The position numbers and the translations under genes were made by a program. Below the pieces are notes generated by a model that was given only the letters and a program-made list of their open reading frames with translations, made no database searches and was not told the origin of the DNA. Shown piece after piece: positions 31,680 through 45,275 of a stretch of 64,000 nucleotides of DNA; positions within the stretch are counted from its first letter, which is position 1; the number at the start of each line of letters is the position of its first letter. The stretch is from the NCBI GenBank assembly GCA_963764625.1, contig CAVXTH010000009.1:608001-672000 (forward strand), in the 5' to 3' direction. Source of the stretch: Candidatus Krumholzibacteriota bacterium (lineage in GTDB: Bacteria; Krumholzibacteriota; Krumholzibacteriia; JAJRXK01).

Positions 31680-33068
31680 CTAGGGAGTCGGAGCGCTCGC
31701 GGCCTTTTGCACGAGTTGCCGCGCGGCCTCGCGATGGCGGGGAAGAAGCGCCGTGAGATCTTCGCTCAACACGGCCCCGTCTCGCACCACCAGCTCTCCA
31801 TTCACCACGACCATCTGCGCGCGGAGAGGGCCACAGAACAAAAGTGCTGCCACCGGATCGTGCGCGCCGCTCGTCGCGATTTCACGATCGAGATCGAAGA
31901 GCGCGAAGTCGGCCGCGGAACCCTTGCCGAGCCAACCCAGCTCTTCGCGCCCGAGGCAAGCCGCTCCTCCCAGGGTAGCCAACTCGAGGGCTTCCATGGC
32001 GGTCATGGCCGCGGCTCCGCTCTCCAGGCGGCGCAGATAGAGTGCCATCCGGGCCTCATTCAGCAAGTGTCCGGTGTCGTTGCTGGCGCTTCCATCCACT
32101 CCCAGTCCGACCGAGACCCCGGCGGCGCGGAGGGTGGGTACCGGACACACGCCCGACCCCAGGCGCATATTGGAGGTGGGACAATGCGCGATGCCGATTC
32201 CCGCCTTGCCCAGACGATCGATTTCGTGCTCGTCGAACCAGATGCCATGGGCCAACCAGACGTCGTCTCCGACCCACTCGACCTCTTCGAGGAAGTCCAG
32301 CGGACGACAGGAAAAATGCCGTAGGCAGAACCCGGTCTCATCCCGTGTCTCGGCCAGATGGGTGTGGAGGCGCACGCCTTCGGCGCGCGCCAGACGCGCG
32401 GTCTCGCGCATGAGGTCCCGGCTCACCGAGAACGGCGCGCACGGGGCCAGCCCCACCTGGTGCATCGAATAGCGCGCCGCGTCGTGCCAGCGCTGAATGA
32501 CGCGCTCGCTGTCGAGCAGGATCAGGCTCTCGTCCTGCGTACACGAACGGGGCGGCAGTCCTCCCTGCGTATCGTCCACGCTCATCGATCCGCGGGTTCC
32601 GTGAAACCGAATGCGCATCGCGGCCGCGGCGTGGAAGGTTGCATCCAAAAGATCGGGGGCGCCCGCACGCGGGAAGAGGTAATGGTGATCGCTGGTGGTG
32701 GTGCACCCCGAGAGCAGCAGCTCGGCGAAGCCCACGCGGGCGGCTAGATCCAGATTCTCCGGGGTGAACCCGGCCCAGATGGGATAGAGGGTGGTGAGCC
32801 ACTGGAAGAGTTCCGCGTCGGCGGCCGGTCCGAAGGCGCGGGTCAGATTCTGACAGAGATGATGGTGGACGTTCACCAGCCCCGGGATGACGACTCCGCC
32901 TCCCAGTTCGACGACCGTCTCCCCGGGCCGGGGGGTGGGCTCGCCCTCGCCCAGCTCCACCACCATGGGACCTTCGCTGCGGATCCAGGCATCCCGCAGG
33001 ACCCGCCGGGCCGGATCCATGCAGACCAGGGTGCCGATCCCCCGCCAGAGTGTGAAGTGCGCGGACAT
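31680..33068 (-). CDS. 8-oxoguanine deaminase-like amidohydrolase
   Basis: PGLVNVHHHLCQNLTRA, HTHLAET, HCPTSNMRLGSG and GVDGSASND. Confidence 0.88.
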   Translation of the reverse strand: MSAHFTLWRGIGTLVCMDPARRVLRDAWIRSEGPMVVELGEGEPTPRPGETVVELGGGVVIPGLVNVHHHLCQNLTRAFGPAADAELFQWLTTLYPIWAGFTPENLDLAARVGFAELLLSGCTTTSDHHYLFPRAGAPDLLDATFHAAAAMRIRFHGTRGSMSVDDTQGGLPPRSCTQDESLILLDSERVIQRWHDAARYSMHQVGLAPCAPFSVSRDLMRETARLARAEGVRLHTHLAETRDETGFCLRHFSCRPLDFLEEVEWVGDDVWLAHGIWFDEHEIDRLGKAGIGIAHCPTSNMRLGSGVCPVPTLRAAGVSVGLGVDGSASNDTGHLLNEARMALYLRRLESGAAAMTAMEALELATLGGAACLGREELGWLGKGSAADFALFDLDREIATSGAHDPVAALLFCGPLRAQMVVVNGELVVRDGAVLSEDLTALLPRHREAARQLVQKAASAPTP

Positions 33069-33161
33069 GGGCAGAGAGTAGCAGGAGCGCGGATTCTGAG
33101 AAAGTCTGCAAACGCGCCGAATTTCGGCCCAGAACAGGCTTTCACATCAAGTTTGTTGTCT

Positions 33162-33196
33162 CATTGTGTTGTGTTACAGCATTTCACAGCAAAATG
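33162..33196. promoter_or_regulatory. Candidate upstream activator site (bEBP enhancer)
   Basis: Inverted repeat CATTGTGTTGTG-N11-CACAGCAAAATG (10/12 match), centred about 157 nt upstream of the predicted sigma54 +1. Confidence 0.4.
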
Positions 33197-33308
33197 TCGA
33201 TCCCGAAGGTCCCTTGACCCATCAAAACTCCACTGGGTTGCCCGGAGAATTCTCCTGGAACTTCTTGTGTAGAAGGAAGTTAAAAAACCTGTCCGAAAGT
33301 GGCCGGAC

Positions 33309-33325
33309 TTGGCACCCGGCCTGCT
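33309..33325 (+). promoter_or_regulatory. sigma54 (-24/-12) promoter
   Basis: TTGGCACCCGGCCTGCT matches TGGCAC-N5-(T)TGCW in an AT-rich upstream context. Predicted +1 is 33336. Confidence 0.75.
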
Positions 33326-33335
33326 TACGGAACCA

Positions 33336-33721
33336 GAGATGCCACACGGACACCTCTGACTTGCGTGGTTTGAAACGGCGACAAAGTCGCGAGCGGGCGA
33401 CGCAAGAAGTGTGGAAGAAGAGGAGACGGAGCCCGAGTGGAGCTCGACAGAGAAGCGCTGCGCCGGTCACCCCACGACCCCACCCAGACCGGCGCGCCCA
33501 TCGGGAAGCGCTGGAGCGAATCGAGGGTTCTGTAGCAAGGAAAGGGTTCCGGGGAGTTGGCGAGAACTCCCTCAAGATGCCGCCCGGCATCGGTGAGCCC
33601 TCAGCTGACGACGTTGCGGTCGGTGCTCTTGGCGAGGGAGCATCGCCCCTCGACCGAATTGGTCCCGTCGCCAGTCCCCATGCGGGGCGTCCCAATCAGG
33701 GAGGGCGCCCCGCGTTTTTTT
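33336..33721 (+). ncRNA. Candidate sigma54-dependent multi-domain structured ncRNA (about 385 nt)
   Basis: Bounded by a sigma54 promoter and a plus-strand intrinsic terminator. Four nested-helix domains with G-U pairs on the + strand; no convincing long ORF. Confidence 0.6.
33682..33721 (+). terminator. Intrinsic terminator
   Basis: Stem GCGGGGCGTCC/GGGCGCCCCGC followed by G and T7. Confidence 0.85.
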
Positions 33722-33733
33722 GTCCGTTTTTCC

Positions 33734-35740
33734 TCAGTTCTCGTCCTCGAGTTGCTTGCGCATCCAGGCGGGGCCCCTGCGCTGGAGAGCCTGAAGCACC
33801 GGCTCGTATTGAGCGGGCAGACGCTGAAAGGCCTGGCCCAAGATGTCGTCTTGCAGCGCTTTCAGGACCTGATTGAGAAGCCGAATGGTGCGTCGTTTCA
33901 CGCGGTGGCGCGGTTGCGATCCGGCGGTGAGAAGTTCGATCACCCGGGCGGTCGATCCACTGCTGACGAAGGCCTTCAGGGTCTCACCGTCGAGATAGTG
34001 GTTCATCTGGACTCGATCGACGATGGCCACGGGCTGGCCATGCGCGCGTCTTGACCTGAGTTGGCGGCTCGCCTCGAGCAGATTGAACCCGTTCTCGCGC
34101 CAGGCCGAGAGAATCTGTTCCTCGACGGAATCGCCGGTTCCACCCCGCGGGAGCGAAGCCTCCACTCCGTCCCTTGGTTGCTCGTTTCGCTGCGCGCCGG
34201 CGAAGCTCTTCTGTGGGTCGCGTCCCGCCGCCGCGGGGCCCGGGGCACCTTCAGGGGACTGAGGATCCGCGAGGGGTCGTTGACTCAGCTGCTGACTCGC
34301 GAACACGCGGCGCAGATGTTCGAGCCGAACGTGACGTTCGTCTCGGCTGCGGATGGCCAGCGCCTCGATCATGTTTTGGAGTTCGCGGACGTTGCCCGGG
34401 AAGAGATGGGCCTGAAGAGCGGAGATTACTTCAGGGTCCACCACCGGCTCCCGCAATCCAAAATCGGCGTAAAACCGCTTCAGAAACGCGCGGCTGAGAA
34501 TCTCGATGTCTCCGATGCGCTCACGCAGCGGGGGAAGGCGCAGCGGGTAGACTTGAACGCGATAGAAAAGGTCCTTGCGGAATTCCCCGCGTGCCACCGC
34601 TTCTCTGAGATCGACGTTGGTGGCGGCGACTACTCTGACGTCCACCGATCTGGTCTTCTCGCCCCCGACCGGTCGGAAGCGACCCTCCTGCAGCGCGCGC
34701 AGAAGGCGCGTCTGTGAGGCCAGGCTCATGTCTCCGATCTCGTCCAGAAAGAGGGTCCCACGATGCGCGAGCTCGAACGCGCCGCGCCGATCGCGCACCG
34801 CACCGGTGAATGCGCCACGCAGGTGTCCGAAGAGTTCGCTTTCGATGAGCTCACGGGGAATCGACGAACAGTCGACGATTTCCAGCGGTCCCCCCTGGCG
34901 GGCCGAGAGCTCGTGGATCGCGCGCGCCACGATTTCCTTTCCCGTACCACTCTCTCCCTGGATGAGCACGGTGGCGCGGCTGGGCGCCAGCTGCACCATG
35001 TCGCGGAAGAGCTGGAGGATCACTCTGCTTTCCCCGAGGATTCCGCGCAGTGGGGGATAGTTCTCGCGGAGTTCGCTCAGGGCGAGGGAGACTTCGCGAT
35101 GCACGTTTGTGGGAGTGCGTCCCAGGATGGGCGCCGGTCCCGCTCCTCGCTCGAGGGCGAGAGTGTAGAGCTCGGCCAAACTCGCGAAGACCTCGAGATC
35201 GTTCGACGAATACCCCTCGCTCAGAAGGCGCCTTCCCAAGAGCAAGAAGCCGAAGAGTCCCTGACGGCCGATGAGCGGACACACCACCGCGGCGTCGAGG
35301 GTCTCGATCTCCTTGCCGTAGGAGTGGAGGAAGTCCCCGGCCGGGCCGGGCACAAGATCCTGGTCGACGCGAAACGGCCGTCCATCGCTCTTTTGCTCGA
35401 AAGCCTGCGCCAGGGTACCCGGAAGGGGAACCTCGACTCTCTCCTCGATGTCCAATCCCGCGTGAACCAGAAGCTCCATGCGCTCGCGAGTGGGATCTCG
35501 CCGGAGGACGCTGGCCGAGGATGCGCCCAGGACGCCGATGACCGAGAGAAGCACGCGGCGGACCACGTCGTCCGCGTCCCGCGCGCGCAGGAGCTCGCGG
35601 CTGGTCTCGACCAGAGTGAGCAGCTCGAAGATGCGGGTCTGCAGGTCGTCCGTGCTCGCGTGGGCGAAGTCGAGGTATTCACCCGTGAACGGTATTTCTT
35701 CCTCGCGGTCGATCACGAATCCTCCCCGTGATGGAGTCAC
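33734..35740 (-). CDS. sigma54 enhancer-binding protein (GAF + AAA+ + HTH-like + extra C-terminal module)
   Basis: GAF-like N-terminus, GESGTGKE, ELFGHLRGAFTGA, LFLDEIGDM and FPGNVRELQN. Confidence 0.93.
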   Translation of the reverse strand: MTPSRGGFVIDREEEIPFTGEYLDFAHASTDDLQTRIFELLTLVETSRELLRARDADDVVRRVLLSVIGVLGASSASVLRRDPTRERMELLVHAGLDIEERVEVPLPGTLAQAFEQKSDGRPFRVDQDLVPGPAGDFLHSYGKEIETLDAAVVCPLIGRQGLFGFLLLGRRLLSEGYSSNDLEVFASLAELYTLALERGAGPAPILGRTPTNVHREVSLALSELRENYPPLRGILGESRVILQLFRDMVQLAPSRATVLIQGESGTGKEIVARAIHELSARQGGPLEIVDCSSIPRELIESELFGHLRGAFTGAVRDRRGAFELAHRGTLFLDEIGDMSLASQTRLLRALQEGRFRPVGGEKTRSVDVRVVAATNVDLREAVARGEFRKDLFYRVQVYPLRLPPLRERIGDIEILSRAFLKRFYADFGLREPVVDPEVISALQAHLFPGNVRELQNMIEALAIRSRDERHVRLEHLRRVFASQQLSQRPLADPQSPEGAPGPAAAGRDPQKSFAGAQRNEQPRDGVEASLPRGGTGDSVEEQILSAWRENGFNLLEASRQLRSRRAHGQPVAIVDRVQMNHYLDGETLKAFVSSGSTARVIELLTAGSQPRHRVKRRTIRLLNQVLKALQDDILGQAFQRLPAQYEPVLQALQRRGPAWMRKQLEDEN

Positions 35741-35959
35741 GCGTCAGCCCAGAGGACATACGCACGAATCCCCCGGTGGGTTCGAAAGCTCGCAGCGGTG
35801 GCGAATCAAAGGCGAGACTAGCATGAAGCCGCCTCGCTGTCCCTCGCGGCCCTTTACGCCTGCCCGCGAGGCTTCTACACTCCAGCTTCCGGTCGCCGGC
35901 GGCGAGCAACAAGACGCCACCGCGGCCGAGAACGACTTTCCTTCAGCCGGAGGCTCGCC

Positions 35960-37567
35960 GTGCGCAGGCTCTCGAGTGCCGTTCTTCCCAACTCGCCGGA
36001 CTTCAAACGCAATCTGAGCGCGAACCGCGCCCGCGCGGAGGCACTGAAGGAGGCCCTGGCCGCGGTTCGGCTCGGAGGGAGCGAGCGCTCGCGCGAACTG
36101 CATCAGAGCCGCGGCAAGCTCCTGGTGCGCGACCGCATCGACGCCCTGCTCGATCAGGGTAGCCCGTTCCTGGAATTTTCGCCGCTCGCCGCGCACGAAG
36201 TGTACTCCGCGCCGCTTCCGGCTGCGGGGATCGTGACCGGAGTCGGCAACATCCACGGCCGGCAGGTGATGATCGTCGCCAATGACGCCACGGTGAAAGG
36301 CGGAACCTATCATCCGCTCACCGTGAAGAAACACCTGCGCGCTCAGGAAATCGCGCTCGAGAATCGGCTTCCCTGCATCTATCTCGTGGACAGCGGGGGG
36401 GCATTCCTGCCGCTGCAGGCCGAGGTCTTTCCCGATCGCGAGCACTTCGGCCGCATCTTTTACAACCAGGCTCAGATGAGTGCCCGTGACATCCCCCAGA
36501 TCTCGGCCGTGCTGGGTTCTTGCACCGCCGGTGGCGCCTACGTTCCCGCAATGAGCGATGAAGTGGTCATCGTGAAGGAACAGGGAACCATCTTTCTGGG
36601 CGGCCCCCCTCTGGTCAAAGCGGCAACCGGGGAGGAGGTCACTACCGAGGAACTCGGAGGGGGCGACGTGCACACCCGAATTAGCGGTGTCGCCGACGCT
36701 CTGGCCAACGACGACTCGCACGCGCTCTCCATCGTGCGGAACATGGTGGAGAACCTGCGCCTCGAGCAAAAGGCGATGATGCCGCGAGAGTCCCCCGAAG
36801 ATCCGCATTACGACCCGGAAGAGCTGATGGGAATTCTGCCCGAGGATCCGCGTCGGCCCTTCGAGGTGCGCGAAGTCATCGCGCGTCTCGTCGATGGTTC
36901 GCGCTTCCACGAGTTCAAGGAACGTTATGGCACGACCGTGGTCACTGGCTTCGGGCGTGTGCACGGTTACGAGATCGGAATCGTCGCCAACAACGGAGTT
37001 CTGTTCAGCGAGAGCGCGCTCAAGGTGACCCACTTCGTTCAGTTGTGCTGCGCCCGCCGGATCCCGCTCCTCTTTCTCCAGAACATCACCGGATACATGG
37101 TCGGGAAGAAATACGAGCAGGGTGGCATCGCCAAGGATGGGGCCAAGATGGTGAACGCGGTGGCGAACGCCGCGGTCCCCAAATTCACCATCATCATCGG
37201 TGGGAGTCATGGGGCCGGCAATTACGGCATGTGCGGGCGGGCCTATCAGCCACGCCTTCTCTTCATGTGGCCGGGCAGTCGTATCAGCGTGATGGGCGGC
37301 GAACAAGCCGCGGGAGTGCTCGCCACCGTCAAGCAGGAGCAACTCGCGCGCAAGGGCGAGGCAATGTCGCCGGAGGAAGAGGAGGCCTTCAAGCAACCGA
37401 TTCTGGACAAGTACGCTCTGGAGAGTTCCCCCTACTATTCCACCGCGCGGCTGTGGGATGACGGAATCATCGATCCCCTGCAGACGCGCGACATCTTAGG
37501 GCTTTCTCTGGAGATGTCCTTCAACGCACCCTTGCAGAAAACCGATTACGGCGTATTTCGTTTCTAG
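35960..37567 (+). CDS. mccB: Methylcrotonoyl-CoA carboxylase beta (carboxyltransferase) subunit
   Basis: [40 protein letters not shown] and C-terminal YGVFRF. Confidence 0.9.
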
Positions 37568-37657
37568 CTCGACAAACGGCTCCCGCGCGTTCCCCGATCG
37601 GAATTCCGACCTTCCGCGGGCTCTAGGCCAGAGCTGGTCGTACAGCACCATCGGAGA

Positions 37658-39010
37658 GTGATCATGGATCTCAACGCGTCCTACAAAGCGCACGTGGAGG
37701 AACTCGACGAACGTACCACCTCGATTCTGCGGACGCTCTCGAAGAAGAACGGAGGGTATCGAGGCATCGTCTTTGCGGCCGGGGGGGAGACCCTCTACCA
37801 CGCTGACGATCAACCCGTGCCGTTCAAACCGTCCTTCCACTTCGCGCGTTGGGCTCCCGTCAAGGGTCCAGATCATCTATTGGTGTTCCGCCCACAGGAG
37901 GTTCCGCTGCTAGTTCGAGTGGTGCCGCGAGACTATTGGTACGAGACTCCGACCGAAATCGAGCATCCCTATCCCCGTACTCTCTGCGTGGAAACCGTGG
38001 CCGATGTCCGGGCCGCGGTGGGGGCGGTCGGGAGGCTGGAAGGTTTCGCCTACGTCGGGCCCGACTCGAAAATGGCACGAGCCCTGGACATTCCGGCCGG
38101 AGACGTGGAGCCGGAAGAACTCATGATGCGACTCGATTGGGACCGGGGCTTAAAAACGCCCTACGAAATCGACTGCATTCGCGGCGCGGTGCGCAAGGCC
38201 GCGCGCGGCCATGCCACGGTTCGCGCCGCGGCGGAGGAGGGGTACTCCGAACGCGTCATGCACGCCAGTTATCTTGCCGCCATCGAACATCTGGAACACG
38301 AAGTTCCCTATACAAACATCATCGCCTGGAATGAACACTCCGCGGTTCTTCACTACCAGAGCAAGGAAGTCACACTGCCCTCCGCCACCCGGAACTTGCT
38401 GATCGATGCAGGGGCAATGGTCCACGGCTACGCAAGTGACATCACCCGGACCTATCCCCAGGCGGCAGCGCACCGTATTTTCCGCGAGCTGGTAACTCAA
38501 CTCGAGCTCTTACAGCGCGAGCTCGTCGAGGGCGTGGGGCCGGGTCGATCTTATCTCGAGCTGCACGAAACGGCTCACCGGGGAGTGGCCAAGATCCTCT
38601 GCGATCTCGCGGTGTTGAAAGTCAGTCCCGAGGAGGCCTTCGATCAGGGTCTCACCGACCCCTTCTTCCCGCACGGCCTGGGTCATCATCTGGGTCTCCA
38701 GGTGCACGACGTTGGGGGACGGCAAGAATCACCCTCGGGGGGCCACGTCGAACCTCCGGCCCGCCATGCCCACCTGCGCACCACGCGCGCCATGGCTCCG
38801 GGCCAAGTTCTCACCATCGAGCCGGGAATCTACTTCATCGCGATGTTGTTGGAACCGTTCCGACAGGGTGAGCGGGCTTCCGCATTCAACTGGAAGCTGA
38901 TCGACGAGTTGCTGCTCTGCGGAGGCGCGCGCATCGAGGACGACATTCTCTGCACGGCTGGTGGCAGAGAAGATCTGTCCCGCGGAAGCATCCCCGGTCA
39001 CCTCGACTGA
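37658..39010 (+). CDS. pepQ: Xaa-Pro dipeptidase (prolidase)
   Basis: LIDAGA...YASDITRTY, FPHGLGHHLGLQVHDVGG, TIEPGIYF and RIEDD. Confidence 0.92.
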   Translation: MIMDLNASYKAHVEELDERTTSILRTLSKKNGGYRGIVFAAGGETLYHADDQPVPFKPSFHFARWAPVKGPDHLLVFRPQEVPLLVRVVPRDYWYETPTEIEHPYPRTLCVETVADVRAAVGAVGRLEGFAYVGPDSKMARALDIPAGDVEPEELMMRLDWDRGLKTPYEIDCIRGAVRKAARGHATVRAAAEEGYSERVMHASYLAAIEHLEHEVPYTNIIAWNEHSAVLHYQSKEVTLPSATRNLLIDAGAMVHGYASDITRTYPQAAAHRIFRELVTQLELLQRELVEGVGPGRSYLELHETAHRGVAKILCDLAVLKVSPEEAFDQGLTDPFFPHGLGHHLGLQVHDVGGRQESPSGGHVEPPARHAHLRTTRAMAPGQVLTIEPGIYFIAMLLEPFRQGERASAFNWKLIDELLLCGGARIEDDILCTAGGREDLSRGSIPGHLD

Positions 39011-39032
39011 AGCGCTTTCGGTTCTCAGGGAG

Positions 39033-40445
39033 CTACGCGGATTCCGCGTAGTGATCGGAGAGAACCTTCGCCACGCACGAAGTCAGCCGCTTCGCGGTCT
39101 TGACGTGGAGGAATTCGTTCGGACCGTGCGCGTTCGACGAGGGCCCGAGGACTCCGGTGATCAGGAACTGCGCCTTGGGAAAGCGCTTCCCGAGCATGGC
39201 CATGAAGGGAATGCTTCCCCCTTCGCCCATGTAGCAAGCCGGTTTTCCGAAGAAGGTTTTCGAAGCCTCCTCGAGGGATGATTCCAGCCAAGAAGCCAGC
39301 GGTGGGGCGTCCCATCCGGCGGCGGGCTCGTCGATCACGAACTCGACACGAGCGTCGTAGGGTGGGTTGGACTCCATGGCCTTCTTGAGGCTCGCCGCGG
39401 CCAGTTTCGGATCGGCCGTTGGCGGGAGCCGGAAGGACAATTTGAAGATCGTCTCGGGTCGTAGAACGTTTCCCGCGTTGCGAACGCTGGGAAAGCCGTC
39501 GGCGCCGGTGACGCACAGAGTGGGCCGCCAGGTGCGCCGGAGCACCAATTCGGTCTTGTCGTTCGTGGTCGGCTTGGTGCCCGGATTCAAGGGAAACTGC
39601 TCGTAGACACTATCCCCGAGCATCTTCGCCACCACTTCGGCTTGTTGCATGCGCTGCTCGGGGATCGTCACGTTCAATTCCGGCAGGAGAATGTCGCCGG
39701 TCTCCTGATCTTCGATGCGACTGAGGATGGCTCTCGCCACGCGGAAGCTCTCCGCGACCACGCCGCTCCCGTCTCCGGAGTGTACCCCCTCGGTGAGGAG
39801 CTGGATCGTGAGCTTCCCGGTGACGTTGCCACGAAGACTGGTCGTGCTCCAGAGCTGGTCGTAGTTGCCGCAACCCGAGTCGAGACACACCACCAGGCTC
39901 GGAGTGCCGATGCGATCGGAGAGATGTTCGATGTAGGCGGGCAGATCGGGGCTACCACTTTCCTCGCACGCCTCGATGAGAACGACACAGCGCGCATGGT
40001 CGAGCCCCTGATCCTGCAGCGATTCGATCGCGGTCATGGCCGCGAAGATGGCATACCCGTCGTCAGCCCCTCCACGACCAAAGAGCTTGCCGTCCTGCAG
40101 AACTGGCGTCCAGGGTCCTTTCCCCTCGTCCCATCCGACCATCTCGGGTTGCTTGTCGAGGTGACCGTAGAGCAGCACGGTTTCGCTGCCCTTGCCCGGA
40201 ATTTCGATGAAAATGAGCGGAGTACGCTTGGGCAGGCGGATCAACTCCAGCTTCAGGCCTTCGACACTGCGATCCTTGGCCCAGTCGCTCAACAGCTGCA
40301 CTGCCTTCTCCATGTGACCGTGTTCTTCCCACTCCGGGTCGAACATCGGTGACTTGTTGGGAATGGCGATGTATTCGGCGATGACGGGAAGAATCTCCTC
40401 CTCCCACGTTTGCTCGACGTGATTCTGCAACCGGTCCAAGTCCAT
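39033..40445 (-). CDS. M20 family metallopeptidase (dipeptidase)
   Basis: YGHLDKQP, GRGGADDG, EESGS and AHGPNE. Confidence 0.92.
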   Translation of the reverse strand: MDLDRLQNHVEQTWEEEILPVIAEYIAIPNKSPMFDPEWEEHGHMEKAVQLLSDWAKDRSVEGLKLELIRLPKRTPLIFIEIPGKGSETVLLYGHLDKQPEMVGWDEGKGPWTPVLQDGKLFGRGGADDGYAIFAAMTAIESLQDQGLDHARCVVLIEACEESGSPDLPAYIEHLSDRIGTPSLVVCLDSGCGNYDQLWSTTSLRGNVTGKLTIQLLTEGVHSGDGSGVVAESFRVARAILSRIEDQETGDILLPELNVTIPEQRMQQAEVVAKMLGDSVYEQFPLNPGTKPTTNDKTELVLRRTWRPTLCVTGADGFPSVRNAGNVLRPETIFKLSFRLPPTADPKLAAASLKKAMESNPPYDARVEFVIDEPAAGWDAPPLASWLESSLEEASKTFFGKPACYMGEGGSIPFMAMLGKRFPKAQFLITGVLGPSSNAHGPNEFLHVKTAKRLTSCVAKVLSDHYAESA

Positions 40446-40633
40446 GGCTCCTCCAGATGGGACTTTGATGTTTCTCTGCCTAGCCTAGCAGGCGAGGTCC
40501 ATTTGGGCCAGGGGTCTGGTGGACGAGTTTCCAGGAGCCCTCTATACTGCCCTCCCGTCCCGTCGCGTCCACTGGCGCCGGGAAGGACTCGATTCCCCGT
40601 TCTACGCCTCGATTCGCGTGAAGGAATTCCAAC

Positions 40634-42439
40634 GTGACGCAAGCCATACGCATTGCCAACGCCGGAGGCTATTGGGGAGATGACCTCAGCGTGCTGCGGC
40701 GACAGCTCGAGGGCGGGGCCCTGGATGTCATCACGATCGACTATCTGGCCGAAATCACGATGTCCATCCTCCAGAAACAGCACAGCCGAAACCACAAACT
40801 GGGCTATGCGCACGATTTCGTCGATCAAGTGCGCGAGGTCCTGCCACTACTGGTCGAAACGGGCACCAAGATCATCACCAATGCAGGGGGCGTGAACCCC
40901 TTTTCCTGCCGCGACGAATTGCTGAAAATCGCCGAGGAAAACTCGAGCCCATTGAGAGTGGGACTCGTGGCGGGGGACGAGGTCCTCGAGTCTCTTTCCA
41001 CTTGGCACGAGCAGGGCGAAGCGCTCACCAACATGGACGACGGACGGGATTTCGCGGAAGCGACGGGAAAATTCACCAGCGCGAACGTCTATTTCGGAGC
41101 CGCTCCGGTAGTGGAGGCCCTGAAACTCGACGCTCAGGTCATCGTCACCGGTCGGGTCACCGACACCGGCATCTCACTCGCGCCGATGATTCACCGCTTC
41201 GGCTGGAAGTGGGACGACTACGACCAACTCGCGGCCGGAATCGTCGCCGCGCACATTCTCGAGTGCGGAGCCCAGAGCACGGGAGGGAATTTCACCGATT
41301 GGAAACGGGTGCCGAGTTTCCACGATGTTGGCTATCCGATCGTCGAAATGCAGCCCGACGGGTCCTTCTTCGTCACCAAGCACGAGGGCACTGGCGGATT
41401 GGTGTGCGTGGAAACCGTAAAGGAACAACTCGTCTACGAAATGGGCGATCCGAGTTCCTACATCACGCCCGACGTGGTGGCTGCCTTCGCTTCGATCAAA
41501 CTGGAGCAGGCGGGGAAGAACCGCGTGCGAGTCTGGGGGATCAAAGGAGCGCCGCCCACGGACACGCTCAAGATTTCGGCCAGCTTGCGCGAGGGATACA
41601 AGGCTAGCGGCGCCGTCATCATCTGCGGTCCGCAAGCTCGCGCCAAGGGAGAGACCTTCGCCGACATCCTGTGGAAGCGACTTCCCGAATATGAGGAGCG
41701 CTTGGTGGAATTCGTGGGAGCGGATGCCACCTGGGGATCCATGTCACCTACCCACGATGCCAGCGAAATCTATCTGCGCATGGGCGTCCGCGATAAGAGC
41801 CGTCCCAAGATCATGGCGTTCTCCAAGATGCTCGCCGCATTGATTCTCTCCGGACCTCCCGGAGTCGCCGTCACCGGCGGCAGGCCTCGGGTGCAAGAGG
41901 TCGTCGGGTACTGGCCCTGTCTGATCCCCAGGAGCCGATGCGAAGCGGTGGTGGAGGTCTCTGATTCGGCCGGCACGGAGAAACTCGAAGTGTCTTTCGG
42001 CAAGGGCACGGGCGACGGTCGCTGTCCAGTAGAGGCGGGAGTTTCCGAGGCCCAGACCCTTCGCCCCAGTGGTAGACTCGTCAGGGTACCGCTGCACCGG
42101 CTGGCGCACGGACGCAGCGGCGACAAGGGGGACACCAGCAACATCGGGGTGATCGCTCGCCATCCGAGCATCTATCCCTGGCTGAAGGAGACCCTCACCG
42201 AAGAGACGGTACAGCGGCGTTTCGAGGGAATCTGTCACGGCGGAGTGAAACGCTTCGAGGTTCCCAATCTGCACGCGTTGAATTTCCTTCTCTTCGAGTC
42301 ACTCGGTGGAGGGGGTACCTTTTCGCTGCACATCGACGCTCAGGGAAAGACCTATGCCCCTGCGCTGCTGGCCATGGAGTTCGAGGTGGACGAGGCACTG
42401 GTGAGTGCGGCGGATTCGACGCGAGGAGACGAGTCATGA
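40634..42439 (+). CDS. atuA: Acyclic terpene utilization AtuA family protein
   Basis: IRIANAGGYWGD, DYLAEITM, LECGAQSTGGNF, RSGDKGD and DAQGK. Confidence 0.88.
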   Translation: MTQAIRIANAGGYWGDDLSVLRRQLEGGALDVITIDYLAEITMSILQKQHSRNHKLGYAHDFVDQVREVLPLLVETGTKIITNAGGVNPFSCRDELLKIAEENSSPLRVGLVAGDEVLESLSTWHEQGEALTNMDDGRDFAEATGKFTSANVYFGAAPVVEALKLDAQVIVTGRVTDTGISLAPMIHRFGWKWDDYDQLAAGIVAAHILECGAQSTGGNFTDWKRVPSFHDVGYPIVEMQPDGSFFVTKHEGTGGLVCVETVKEQLVYEMGDPSSYITPDVVAAFASIKLEQAGKNRVRVWGIKGAPPTDTLKISASLREGYKASGAVIICGPQARAKGETFADILWKRLPEYEERLVEFVGADATWGSMSPTHDASEIYLRMGVRDKSRPKIMAFSKMLAALILSGPPGVAVTGGRPRVQEVVGYWPCLIPRSRCEAVVEVSDSAGTEKLEVSFGKGTGDGRCPVEAGVSEAQTLRPSGRLVRVPLHRLAHGRSGDKGDTSNIGVIARHPSIYPWLKETLTEETVQRRFEGICHGGVKRFEVPNLHALNFLLFESLGGGGTFSLHIDAQGKTYAPALLAMEFEVDEALVSAADSTRGDES

Positions 42440-43234
42440 GCGACAAACTGATGCAAATCTGCCAAGGGCTCCACGCGTGAGCTACGTCTGAACCGACCCG
42501 AGATTCGCAACGCCCTCGACGAAGAACTCATCGAGGAACTCACCGACGGCATCCACGCCGCGGCTGCGGACTCGGCCGTGCGCTTCGTGCTGCTGAGTGG
42601 GGCGGGGAAGTCCTTCTGTGCCGGCGCGGACATCGGGTACATGCGCCGCCTGGCCGAATACGACCACGAAGACAATCTCGCCGACGCGCGCACGCTGAGC
42701 GCGCTTTACGAAGCCATCTCCGCCTGTCCCAAGCCGGTCGTCGCGCGGGTCCAGGGCGCGGCAATCGGCGGAGGCCTCGGCCTCGTCGCCGCGGCCGACG
42801 TGGTGGTGGCCGCACAGGGGACGAAGTTCGGTCTGACCGAGGCACGGTTGGGAATTCTCCCGGCGGTGATCTCCCCCTTCGTGTTGCGACGTCTGGGACC
42901 GGGAGCCTGTCGCACACTTTTCCTGAGCACCCAGATCTTCACCGCCAACAAGGCGCAGCGTCTGGGTCTTGTGGACGAGATCGCGCCACTCGCAGAGCTG
43001 GATGCCACCGTCGACGTCATCCTGAAAGAACTGAGTCTGGGAGGGCCGAAGGCGCAAGCCGAATGCAAACGTCTTCTGGACGAAATTGGATCTCTGCCTC
43101 TTTCCGAAGCGAAGAAGATCACTCCGGAATACATCGCGACGCAACGGGCGACCGACGAGGCCAAAGAGGGGTTCGACGCCTACTTCGAGAAGCGTCCCAC
43201 GAAGTGGGTGGCCGAATTCGAGGAGGAAGAATGA
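42436..43234 (+). CDS. Enoyl-CoA hydratase / methylglutaconyl-CoA hydratase (frameshift near 42458)
   Basis: ATG overlaps the atuA stop. LNRPEIRNALD, FCAGADI, GGGLGL and EARLGILPAVISP. Confidence 0.85.
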
Positions 43235-44769
43235 GCCAACCGATCCGCCGCATCCTGGTCGCGAACCGCGGCGAAATCGCGGTGAGGGTCATGCGGGCTT
43301 GCCGTGAACTCGGCATCTCCTGCGTTGCTGTCGCAAGCGAGGCCGATCGCTTCGCCCTTCACGCACAGCTGGCCAACGAGGTGGTGGTGATCGGGGAGGC
43401 CGAGGCCAGCAAGAGCTATCTGGTGATGGACAAAATCCTGGAGGCGGCTCGCGCCAGCGGGTGCGACGCGATTCATCCAGGGTATGGTTTCTTGGCCGAA
43501 AATGCCCAGTTCGCCCAGGCTTGCTCCGACGCCGGTCTGATCTTCATCGGACCCACGCCTTCGGTCATCGAGGAGATGGGCCTCAAGACGCGGGCCCGCG
43601 CGCGTATGGAGGCGGCGGGAGTGCCAGTGGTGCCCGGCGCGCTTCTCGGCGCCAAGGCCACGGAATCCGCGATCGCGAAGGCCGCCAAGAGCGTGGGTTT
43701 CCCCCTGCTCGTGAAAGCCGCTGCCGGGGGTGGAGGCAAGGGCATGAGGGCGGTGCAGGCGCCGAAAGATCTGGCCGATGCAGTGGCGGCGGCGCGGCGC
43801 GAAGCTCTCTCCGCCTTCGGGAACGAGGAAGTCTATCTGGAAAGGCTGCTCGCGCGGCCGCGCCACATCGAAGTCCAGGTATTGGGGGACACGCACGGAA
43901 ATGTCATGCACCTCGGTGAGCGCGAGTGTTCGATTCAGCGCCGTCACCAGAAGATCATCGAAGAATCGCCGGCGCCCTCTCTGGGGGAGGACCTTCGCGC
44001 GCGTATGCATGAGACCGCGGTGCGGGCGGCGCGCGCGGTTTCCTACACCGGCGCGGGTACGGTGGAGATGCTCCTGGACGAAAGCGGCGCGTTCTTCTTC
44101 CTGGAGATGAATACGCGCCTGCAAGTGGAGCACCCGGTCACCGAGTGGGTAACCGGCATCGACCTCGTGGCCCAACAGATTCACGTCGCGCAGGGGGAAG
44201 CACTGGGCCTGAAGCAGGAAGACATCAAAGCCCGCGGACACAGCATCGAAGCGCGCCTCTACGCCGAGGATCCAGCCGAGGGGTTCATGCCGCGGACCGG
44301 TGAGGTCCTGCTCTTCGAGGCCCCGGCGGGGCCAGGAGTTCGCGTCGACACCGGAATTACCACCGGAGCCGAAATCTCCCTCTACTACGACCCCCTGATC
44401 GCGAAGCTCTCCACCTGGGCGGAAGACCGTGATGGCGCGCGGCGACGCATGCTGCAGGCCCTGAAGGAGACGGTTCTTCTGGGCGTAGGGAGCAACCTCA
44501 CGTATCTCCATGCCGTCCTCGCGCACCCGCAGTTCGCGCAGGGTCATACGCATACCGGCTTCTTGCCCCAGTACTTCGAAGGCTGGAAGCCGGACGCAGG
44601 AACGGAGAGTGAGGAGGAAGGTCAGGCAATGCTCGCGGTCGCGGCGACCGTTCTCAGCCGCGGGCCCCGAGGCGGGCATGGGCCAGGGCGGTCACGCCCC
44701 GGCGGAGGAGAGGAGATCCAGGGCCCATGGTCACGACTGGCCGCCCTTCGACTGAGGGGAGGAGCATGA
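43231..44769 (+). CDS. Biotin carboxylase subunit (MCC alpha, BC domain)
   Basis: ILVANRGEIAVR, HPGYGFLAEN, GGGGKGMR and EMNTRLQVEHPVTE. Confidence 0.92.
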   Translation: MSQPIRRILVANRGEIAVRVMRACRELGISCVAVASEADRFALHAQLANEVVVIGEAEASKSYLVMDKILEAARASGCDAIHPGYGFLAENAQFAQACSDAGLIFIGPTPSVIEEMGLKTRARARMEAAGVPVVPGALLGAKATESAIAKAAKSVGFPLLVKAAAGGGGKGMRAVQAPKDLADAVAAARREALSAFGNEEVYLERLLARPRHIEVQVLGDTHGNVMHLGERECSIQRRHQKIIEESPAPSLGEDLRARMHETAVRAARAVSYTGAGTVEMLLDESGAFFFLEMNTRLQVEHPVTEWVTGIDLVAQQIHVAQGEALGLKQEDIKARGHSIEARLYAEDPAEGFMPRTGEVLLFEAPAGPGVRVDTGITTGAEISLYYDPLIAKLSTWAEDRDGARRRMLQALKETVLLGVGSNLTYLHAVLAHPQFAQGHTHTGFLPQYFEGWKPDAGTESEEEGQAMLAVAATVLSRGPRGGHGPGRSRPGGGEEIQGPWSRLAALRLRGGA

Positions 44770-45275
44770 TGGAGCTACGACTGCAGGAAAAGGGGAAGAG
44801 GCACGTTCTCCGGTGCGAGCCCGAGGACAATGCCCTGCGTCTGAGCGTCGAGGACGGGGAGAGCTTCCTCTGTTCGGTCGAGGCTCAGGACGACAATGCG
44901 CTTCTCTTGCGAGTGGGAGACAAATTGGTGCGCGCGCGATACGCGCGCAAAGGGCACGAGCTGTGGGTCCAGGTCGGTGCTCGCGTTTCGAGTTTTCGAC
45001 TCCTGGACGAAGAGGATGAAGAGGACGTCGATGCATCCGCGGGAAGTCCCGTGGTGCGCGCACCGATGCCGGGGAAAGTGCTGGCTCTGCTGGTCGAGGA
45101 AGGGCAGGAAGTCCAGCTCGGACAGGCGGTGGTGAGAGTGGAGGCGATGAAGATGGAAGTGGAACTGCCGGCCACGGTGGCAGGCACGGTGGAGACGATT
45201 CACGCCCAGGCCGAAGAGCTCGTCCTACCCGATGCGCCGCTGGTGACGATCAAGCCGCACGAAGAGGCGGACTGA
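44766..45275 (+). CDS. Biotin carboxyl carrier (BT-BCCP) subunit
   Basis: RAPMPGKV and EAMKME biotinylation motif; own GGAGGAG RBS with ATGA overlap. Confidence 0.9.
   Translation: MMELRLQEKGKRHVLRCEPEDNALRLSVEDGESFLCSVEAQDDNALLLRVGDKLVRARYARKGHELWVQVGARVSSFRLLDEEDEEDVDASAGSPVVRAPMPGKVLALLVEEGQEVQLGQAVVRVEAMKMEVELPATVAGTVETIHAQAEELVLPDAPLVTIKPHEEAD

Follow-up and report, generated by a model that had tools for sequence, protein, structure and literature searches.

In a 64,000-nucleotide (nt) stretch of DNA from an uncultured Candidatus Krumholzibacteriota bacterium (contig CAVXTH010000009.1, positions 608,001 to 672,000; hereafter the window), the interval at 33069-33733 carries a sigma-54-type promoter and an intrinsic terminator on the plus strand and is flanked by two minus-strand genes. 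What is transcribed from this interval, and what might the product do? The upstream neighbour is an amidohydrolase gene (31680-33068, minus strand) that passes the equivalog cut-off for 8-oxoguanine deaminase (Pfam, NCBIfam). The downstream neighbour (33734-35740, minus strand) encodes a bacterial enhancer-binding protein (bEBP) of 668 amino acids. An earlier note on this DNA had proposed a sigma-54-driven, self-terminating, structured non-coding RNA (ncRNA) of about 385 nt that faces its probable activator, and the gene layout agrees with this: both flanking genes lie on the minus strand, and the activator gene is downstream of the RNA and convergent with it. All the elements that the note listed can be found in the DNA. 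Read along the plus strand, the order is a TGTTGT box, an inverted repeat, a spacer, the sigma-54 box, the RNA of about 385 nt, and a hairpin followed by seven T residues (T7) as terminator. In this study, promoter, repeat, RNA and terminator were found to be conserved as one unit, and the fold of the RNA was found to covary. The interval holds a separate gene whose product is a highly structured ncRNA of roughly 385 nt, and it very probably represents a genuine sigma-54-type, bEBP-linked structured ncRNA of a family absent from Rfam.

The association with the bEBP gene is constant. An orthologous bEBP gene (products 55-79% identical) and the RNA occur together in 17 of 17 loci, comprising 10 genome copies from nine of the 10 genomes of the family and seven metagenome contigs, and the two are always convergent. 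The seven metagenome loci were found through the C-terminal domain of the bEBP alone, and all seven have the RNA convergent with the gene and downstream of it. The neighbour on the other side changes: the window's genus and genome G005 have the deaminase there, and three other genera have a secreted-looking protein with a FlgD-Ig tail. What is conserved is thus the RNA together with the bEBP. In four genomes (G006-G009; loci L013, L014, L015 and L016), the upstream neighbour is codirectional with the RNA, and its product shows a weak DUF6055 match and/or an FlgD-Ig-like C-terminal tail, with HELKH in G006 only.

The promoter, located by motif scan at 33310-33326 on the plus strand (TGGCACccggccTGCtt), combines TGGCAC at -24 with TGC at -12 and bears out the -24/-12 promoter described earlier. 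A single sigma-54 box carries little weight, because 19 TGGCAC-N6-TGC sites occur in the window against 15.4 expected when one mismatch is allowed; the weight comes from conservation. TGGCAY-N6-TGC lies 169-245 nt upstream of the conserved core of the RNA in 10 of 10 genome loci and seven of seven metagenome loci (17/17). The exact TGGCAC-N6-TGC occurs at two sites in the whole window, and the second, at 32033-32047 on the minus strand inside the deaminase gene, is probably a chance match. Several features of a sigma-54 unit are present here: a -24 GG and a -12 GC at the canonical distance (TGGCAC-N5-TTGCW), rpoN in the genome (Sigma54_DBD, 217.9 bits, C9:980674-981144), a GAFTGA-bearing bEBP, and upstream sites in the 80-200 bp range. 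The bEBP consists of a GAF domain, a sigma-54 AAA+ domain with GAFTGA (Sigma54_activat at 4.3e-66), an AAA lid and an all-helical C-terminal domain left unclassified by Pfam. The Walker motifs and GAFTGA can be read in its sequence, and the protein reached no NCBIfam equivalog cut-off.

A candidate enhancer (upstream activating sequence) is found 143 nt upstream of the -24 box, where the inverted repeat TGTTGTG-N11-CACAGCA occupies 33167-33191. The enhancer-like repeat had been noticed before, and it has an equivalent in most relatives: of 15 distinct loci, 13 have TGTTGTG-N8-16-CACAACA, with at most two mismatches, between -91 and -166 relative to the -24 box, whereas shuffled upstream regions give 0.06 loci on average. 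An extra TGTTGT box, read in the sequence, lies upstream of the main repeat at 33154-33159 (plus strand). The hexamer ACAACA/TGTTGT occurs 33 times in the ten orthologous upstream sequences of 260 nt and is present in every one of them; the chance expectation, which is our own arithmetic from base composition and not the output of a tool, is well below one. The bEBP may bind the upstream repeat. In genome G000, five clusters of at least three such boxes were found, none with a sigma-54 box within 350 nt; this is a weak test, since the RNA's own locus (two boxes) falls below its threshold.

Between enhancer and promoter, the spacer at 33192-33309 has a G+C content of 49%, below that of the RNA (65%) and the genome (62%), so that the spacer earlier called AT-rich is at least a lower-GC one. 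It holds the palindrome CCCGGAGAATTCTCCTGG (33241-33258) and an A6 tract, and IHF-like bending at this spacer may be supposed. The palindrome is near-perfect, with the halves CCCGGAGAA and TTCTCCTGG; it was not noticed in the other upstream sequences read, for which no dedicated comparison was made. Just upstream of the -24 box, the minus strand shows a terminator-like hairpin with a T-run at 33281-33308 (GTCCGGCCACTTTCGGAC, then AGGTTTTTTA). About 1.2 such sites are expected by chance, and the hairpin was not seen in the other genera. One conceivable role is to end antisense transcripts that run on from the bEBP gene before they reach the deaminase gene.

The RNA is predicted to extend from 33336 to 33721 on the plus strand (about 386 nt), with its 5' end placed by promoter geometry; homology with relatives spans promoter to terminator, and the orthologous RNAs measure 342-404 nt. 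The plus strand folds with z = -2.77 (2 of 100 shuffles as good) and the minus strand with z = -0.56 (26 of 100). Covariation was assessed, as the earlier note had suggested, on the regions downstream of orthologous bEBP genes. A covariance model of the 3' core (R1; 190 positions, 49 pairs) was evaluated on 15 distinct sequences, with L046 and L051 omitted as scoring the same as the window and G008. In these, 94.5% of 704 cells were paired, against 42-50% when the 3' partners were slid. Thirty-four of the 49 pairs changed on both sides, and none of 500 shuffles reached any of five measures. The alignments were fitted to R1 and to a second model for Domain II (R2), which favours structure; the slid controls use the same alignment.

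Most of the helices first drawn by eye reappear in the conserved fold, with some changes. Domain I (33342-33414), seen in the minimum free energy (MFE) fold, has CCACAC/GUGUGG around CUUGCGU/ACGCAAG and an apical hairpin. These are the helices first proposed. Where the closest relatives have CUCGCGU/ACGUGAG and CUCACG/CGUGAG in place of CUUGCGU/ACGCAAG, the changes are compensatory; beyond these relatives the domain is not alignable, and in other genera its position is taken by different hairpins, some with the loop motif described below. For the 5' half, MAFFT with RNAalifold gave five pairs in one run and none in another. Domain II (33454-33512), modelled by R2 as a hand-set structure, is built of the outer helix AGCGCU/AGCGCU and the inner helix GCGCCGGUC/GACCGGCGC, both part of the first proposal, together with a C-rich loop (33469-33486, ACCCCAC...) and a small CCC/GGG hairpin. 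Covariation supports both helices: in the 12 of 15 sequences aligned (L017, L048 and L050 missed E 0.01), 83.3% of cells were paired against 31-48% when slid, and nine of 18 pairs were compensatory. Conserved in this domain are GGCAAGGCGRCG, the loop GGYCACCCCAYCG(GACGUCAC) and the C-rich loop, with the consensus CACCCCAY.

Domains III and IV belong to the core covered by R1. Domain III (33544-33600) is closed by helix P1, GGGUUC at 33544-33549 with GAGCCC at 33595-33600, around hairpins H1 (loop UUGGCGAGAA, 33557-33566) and H2 (GAUGCC-GCCC-GGCAUC, 33576-33591). Its closing helix is not the upstream copy of GAGGGTTC around three hairpins that had been drawn but P1 around two. Pairs are compensatory at six of six positions in helix 1 of the model and at four of six in helix 4. 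In Domain IV (33605-33674), helix P3 (CUGACGACG/CGUCGCCAG, 33605-33613 with 33666-33674) encloses H3 (loop UUGGCGAGG, 33629-33637) and a small hairpin H4 (33652-33664), with compensatory changes at six of eight pairs in helix 5, six of seven in helix 6 and three of three in helix 8. In the conserved fold a small separate hairpin, GACC-GAAUU-GGUC, replaces the CGGTCG/CGACCG first proposed. The terminator at 33682-33721, already recognized from its hairpin and T7, has a G+C stem of 11-12 bp in both the MFE fold and the model: GCGGGGCG (33682-33689) pairs with CGCCCCGC (33706-33713), and a G and T7 (33715-33721) follow. As helix 9 of R1, the terminator is 98.8% paired in the 15 sequences and compensatory at five of 11 pairs. 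In the clade of G008, G009, L050 and L051, little or no T-run follows the stem.

The same alignments bear on the possibility that the transcript is the mRNA of a small protein, such as the open reading frame (ORF) from GTG 33437 to TAG 33535, which had been named as a possible objection to an ncRNA, or the 61-codon ORF at 33411-33596. Open frames are present, as they are everywhere in DNA of 62-65% G+C. No reading frame is common to the ten orthologues, however, and the ORF starting with GTG 33437 is interrupted by one-base insertions or deletions (alignment columns 119-123) even among the closest relatives. Moreover, substitutions are compensatory in helices and do not fall at third codon positions. 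A coding function is thus extremely improbable.

The convergence with the bEBP gene in 17 of 17 loci also raises the possibility of a cis-acting element, in which an antisense or interfering transcript, or a bidirectional terminator region, would modulate expression of the bEBP gene only. In the window the terminator lies 13 nt from the bEBP stop codon, and the hairpin has no T-run on the minus strand, so bEBP transcripts may enter the RNA gene. However, the RNA and the coding region of the bEBP are free of overlap, the distance from terminator to stop codon varies among the loci, and about 350 nt of covarying structure with invariant loops would be superfluous for interference. This explanation is regarded as very unlikely.

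Is the RNA a member of a known family, and how widely does it occur? A search of the whole window against the Rfam 15 models, which would cover the known sigma-54-dependent sRNAs if these have models there, returned no match at the gathering score; the best sub-threshold match was Scr1601, whose 16.8 bits (E = 0.46) fell short of a threshold of 100, in line with the earlier impression that the RNA is unrelated to known families. Literature searches, with supplementary files outside their coverage, turned up no earlier account of such an RNA. Of 41 related genomes searched at the DNA level, six gave a match. In the two closest copies, similarity runs from the -24 box (query position 148 or 177) to the terminator (query 561-564), and further relatives retain only the 3' core. 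With R1, the RNA was found in nine of the 10 genomes of the family, which makes up the whole order in the genome set used. Each genome has a single copy except G002, which has two. In samples of 151 genomes of the class and of the phylum, all strong R1 matches fell within this one family. The class sample gave five weak matches outside it. Four of these (L024, L025, L026 and L028), like L019 of G003, are plain terminator hairpins after coding regions, with neither a sigma-54 box nor a motif loop, and were rejected; the fifth (L027) covers 33 nt of the terminator part only.

Two genomes of the family call for comment. G003 (93% complete) lacks the RNA, the bEBP C-terminal domain and the neighbouring deaminase; this was rejected as evidence of joint loss, because the whole region may be missing from the assembly. 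G002 (88% complete, 7% contamination) holds the deaminase-RNA-bEBP region twice, on contigs C8 and C9 (L002/L018 and L007/L010), at about 80-88% identity, and the duplicate may reflect two strains in one bin rather than paralogues.

The sequence is also present in RNA libraries. All four metatranscriptome runs compared with the window yielded contigs with no difference from the window, at 33309-33567, 33348-33689, 33354-33619 (with adapter sequence at both ends) and 33375-33525. The look at metatranscriptomes that had been advised earlier therefore gave identical contigs over 33309-33689 in four of four runs; such contigs attest the presence of the sequence in RNA libraries, carry no strand, ends or level, and may derive from DNA carry-over. 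Of the words sampled from a 2.5-kb stretch, 5-12% were found in these runs, which bear four study codes from one year and habitat, so they may be one campaign. Apart from one 80-nt piece, the deaminase gene has no identical contigs in these libraries, and the bEBP gene has only short or divergent pieces; the contigs cannot rank expression.

The question of function turns on a motif in the apical loops. In each RNA, two to five of these loops carry the invariant GGCGAR (UUGGCGAG in the window). The RNA of the window has two such hairpins, H1 (GGGAG-UUGGCGAGAA-CUCCC) and H3 (UGCUC-UUGGCGAGG-GAGCA); those of G008 and G009 have five, including two extra in the 5' part. The terminator loop reads UUGGCGAGAG in most orthologues and AAUCAGGGAG in the window, the motif having been lost from this loop in the window's clade. 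The motif loops are 8-11 nt long and sit on covarying stems, with invariant residues; in the most divergent members the fixed part is reduced to GGCGAR, that is, 6 nt.

One explanation of these loops is that the RNA is catalytic, binds a ligand, or serves as structure or scaffold in a ribonucleoprotein; in each case GGCGAR would make GNRA-like tertiary contacts. The length of 342-404 nt, the multi-branch domains and the extensive covariation would suit such an RNA, and GCGA within the motif, read by eye, fits the GNRA pattern. On the other hand, the 5' third shows no conservation from one genus to another and motif hairpins come and go, and the terminator loop of the window's clade no longer has the motif; a modular regulator would be expected to vary in this way more than a machine of fixed three-dimensional form. 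Being switched tightly on and off by a dedicated bEBP is likewise typical of regulators. A scaffold or catalytic role is therefore considered improbable.

A trans-acting regulator fits the modular loops better, and two modes of action may be distinguished. The favoured proposal is that the RNA serves as a multivalent decoy for an RNA-binding protein. The GAF domain of the bEBP would sense a small molecule; the bEBP would then bind TGTTGTG-N11-CACAGCA, about 170 nt upstream of the start, and open the sigma-54 promoter, so that the RNA would be made only when the signal is present. The repeated GGCGAR loops would titrate the protein, and translational control on its mRNA targets would be released or imposed. 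The decoy step would follow the logic of CsrB, RsmZ, CrcZ and GlmY in a lineage without detected Hfq or CsrA; neither Hfq (PF17209) nor CsrA (PF02599) was found in G000, which is 96% complete. Known sponge RNAs are long and G+C-rich, like the RNA here. The variation in copy number from two to five, with the motif in apical loops on covarying stems, speaks for a decoy, and the six fixed nucleotides of the most divergent members are short for a pairing seed. A decoy is favoured over kissing-loop pairing on three grounds: this six-nucleotide core, how large the RNA is and how it is built, and a crude test in which the complementary sequence was not enriched near start codons. The chance that the decoy proposal is correct is put somewhat below even.

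The second mode is base pairing of the NrsZ type. The identical loops, the CACCCCAY loop or both would kiss or seed mRNAs with CUCGCC(AA) or G-rich sites and alter their translation or stability, and additional copies would increase the dose, perhaps once the RNA has been processed to single hairpins. The architecture resembles that of NrsZ, with two to five motif copies here; the loop residues are invariant on covarying stems; and the C-rich stretch is single-stranded and conserved. Against this, the complement CTCGCCAA shows no enrichment close to predicted starts: five of its 245 occurrences lie there, against a mean of 2.5% for 40 permuted controls, in a crude test with a home-made gene model. 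In addition, divergent members keep only the six motif nucleotides. Hfq was not found in the genome, although NrsZ-like kissing may not need it. A further candidate, feedback of the RNA on the bEBP mRNA, was rejected: the sole complementary site seen, UCUCGCC, lies at -75 in the bEBP leader of the window, and none of eight orthologous leaders has it at the same position. Regulation by base pairing is considered possible, at a lesser likelihood than a decoy, and no test made here separates the two with any force.

Several observations weigh against the decoy proposal or the switch that would drive it. Activation by the adjoining bEBP is suggested by co-occurrence and the conserved upstream repeat, that is, by comparison of sequences. 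One RNA-library contig begins at 33309, which is 27 nt before the predicted +1 (33336) and is not explained by that start; the other three begin at 33348-33375. The gene model used for start codons is unreliable, as in a genome-wide scan for motif hairpins its coding filter called the two hairpins of the RNA itself coding. No candidate gene for a partner protein is linked to the locus, where the bEBP is the sole conserved neighbour, and the motif resembles no protein-binding site that we can name. The RNA was confined, in searches within the phylum, to one family of an uncultured phylum, so any role would be lineage-specific. Finally, NrsZ, the closest architectural analogue, is proposed to act by loop-loop pairing and not by sequestration (PMC4253122).

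If the decoy proposal is nevertheless taken a step further, the GGCGAR-loop RNA would be an antagonist of a global RNA-binding regulator in a phylum where neither Hfq nor CsrA was found, giving a third independent system of sponge RNA and RNA-binding protein, here switched by a metabolite-sensing GAF-bEBP; this extension is possible but less likely than not. In a bolder variant, the loops would bind the basic, all-helical C-terminal domain of the bEBP itself and so feed back on the activator, which has at best a very slight chance of being right. This domain (residues about 538-668; window 33737-34130, minus strand) is conserved and carries the motifs FNLLEASR, NHYLDGE and FPRLP. An AlphaFold model of the C-terminal 130 or so residues is all-helical with pLDDT >90. 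The domain matched no Pfam family at E <0.1 and showed no recognizable Fis-type helix-turn-helix (HTH_8); Foldseek gave no match against the PDB at E <1, and scores in a protein atlas did not exceed 0.87. Distant homologues of the domain (30-34% identity, in family f3 and elsewhere) lack a sigma-54 box in all seven loci checked; a few GGCGAR strings occur there, whether in hairpins or not.

The bEBP gene may also have a promoter of its own. The sequence TGCTAGNCT lies about 50-90 nt upstream of its start (window about 35815-35823, minus strand) and is likewise found in seven of eight orthologous leaders (L053-L060), with no such element seen in G006. It resembles an extended -10 element, and a sigma-70-type promoter for the activator gene is therefore probable. 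A motif scan of the intergenic region at 35741-35959 found no sigma-54 box. Beyond this region, the genes at 35960-45275 are divergent from that of the bEBP and encode an acyl-CoA carboxyltransferase, an Xaa-Pro dipeptidase, an M20 peptidase, AtuA, a biotin carboxylase and a biotin carrier domain; together they resemble a cluster for leucine/isovalerate or acyclic-terpene utilization.

How does the RNA compare with known systems? Small RNAs (sRNAs) made from sigma-54 promoters beside or under a dedicated bEBP include GlmY (GlrR), Qrr1-5 (LuxO) and Pxr (adjacent to Nla19), with GlmY acting as a protein decoy. Together with NrsZ and CrcZ, they are central switches that govern decisions on nitrogen, carbon, the cell envelope, quorum and development, and to our knowledge all activator-adjacent sigma-54 sRNAs described are from Proteobacteria or Myxobacteria. 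GlmY, Qrr and Pxr are about 100-200 nt long with other folds and motifs, and none was matched by the model search. CsrB, RsmY and RsmZ have many hairpins that repeat GGA or ANGGA in apical loops, with variable copy number and a Rho-independent terminator, and are not sigma-54-dependent; the RNA here carries GGCGAR instead of GGA, and CsrA was not found in the genome.

CrcZ is a long sRNA whose repeated A-rich motifs bind Hfq. It shares with the RNA here its length, a sigma-54 promoter, a dedicated bEBP and repeated motifs, which serve titration in CrcZ, as does CrcY. In contrast, the RNA here is 65% G+C with a G/C-rich motif in loops; no A-rich (ARN) repeats were seen in it, Hfq was not found, and there is no homology. 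CrcZ and CrcY of Pseudomonas are CbrB/RpoN-dependent antagonists of Hfq/Crc (PMC5113210, PMC4063720).

NrsZ of Pseudomonas is the closest in layout: it has an RpoN promoter, lies between the tail-to-tail ntrC and a neighbour gene, and forms three stem-loops with an identical loop motif that is present in one to six copies across species (PMC4253122). Alike in both are the sigma-54 promoter beside the 3' end of the activating bEBP gene, the repeated identical loops and their variable copy number. NrsZ consists of about 226 nt of hairpins and spacers with the motif ACAGGCAG under the response regulator NtrC, whereas the RNA here has GGCGAR, about 385 nt in multi-branch covarying domains, and a convergent GAF-bEBP. 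The two share no similarity in sequence or model (no Rfam match), and Hfq was not found in the uncultured host; the NrsZ-like modular layout is thus a likeness of working and not of descent.

In sum, this study adds to the known ncRNAs a long, structured class that is missing from Rfam, and the sequence comparisons suggest a new RNA family built on known regulatory logic. It is a well-supported example from an uncultured lineage, set apart by a much larger and more structured RNA, a new invariant loop motif, a bEBP whose DNA-binding end is not a recognizable Fis-type HTH, and a host in which Hfq and CsrA were not found. Its sensor-activator gene, enhancer, promoter and RNA together form a self-contained module.

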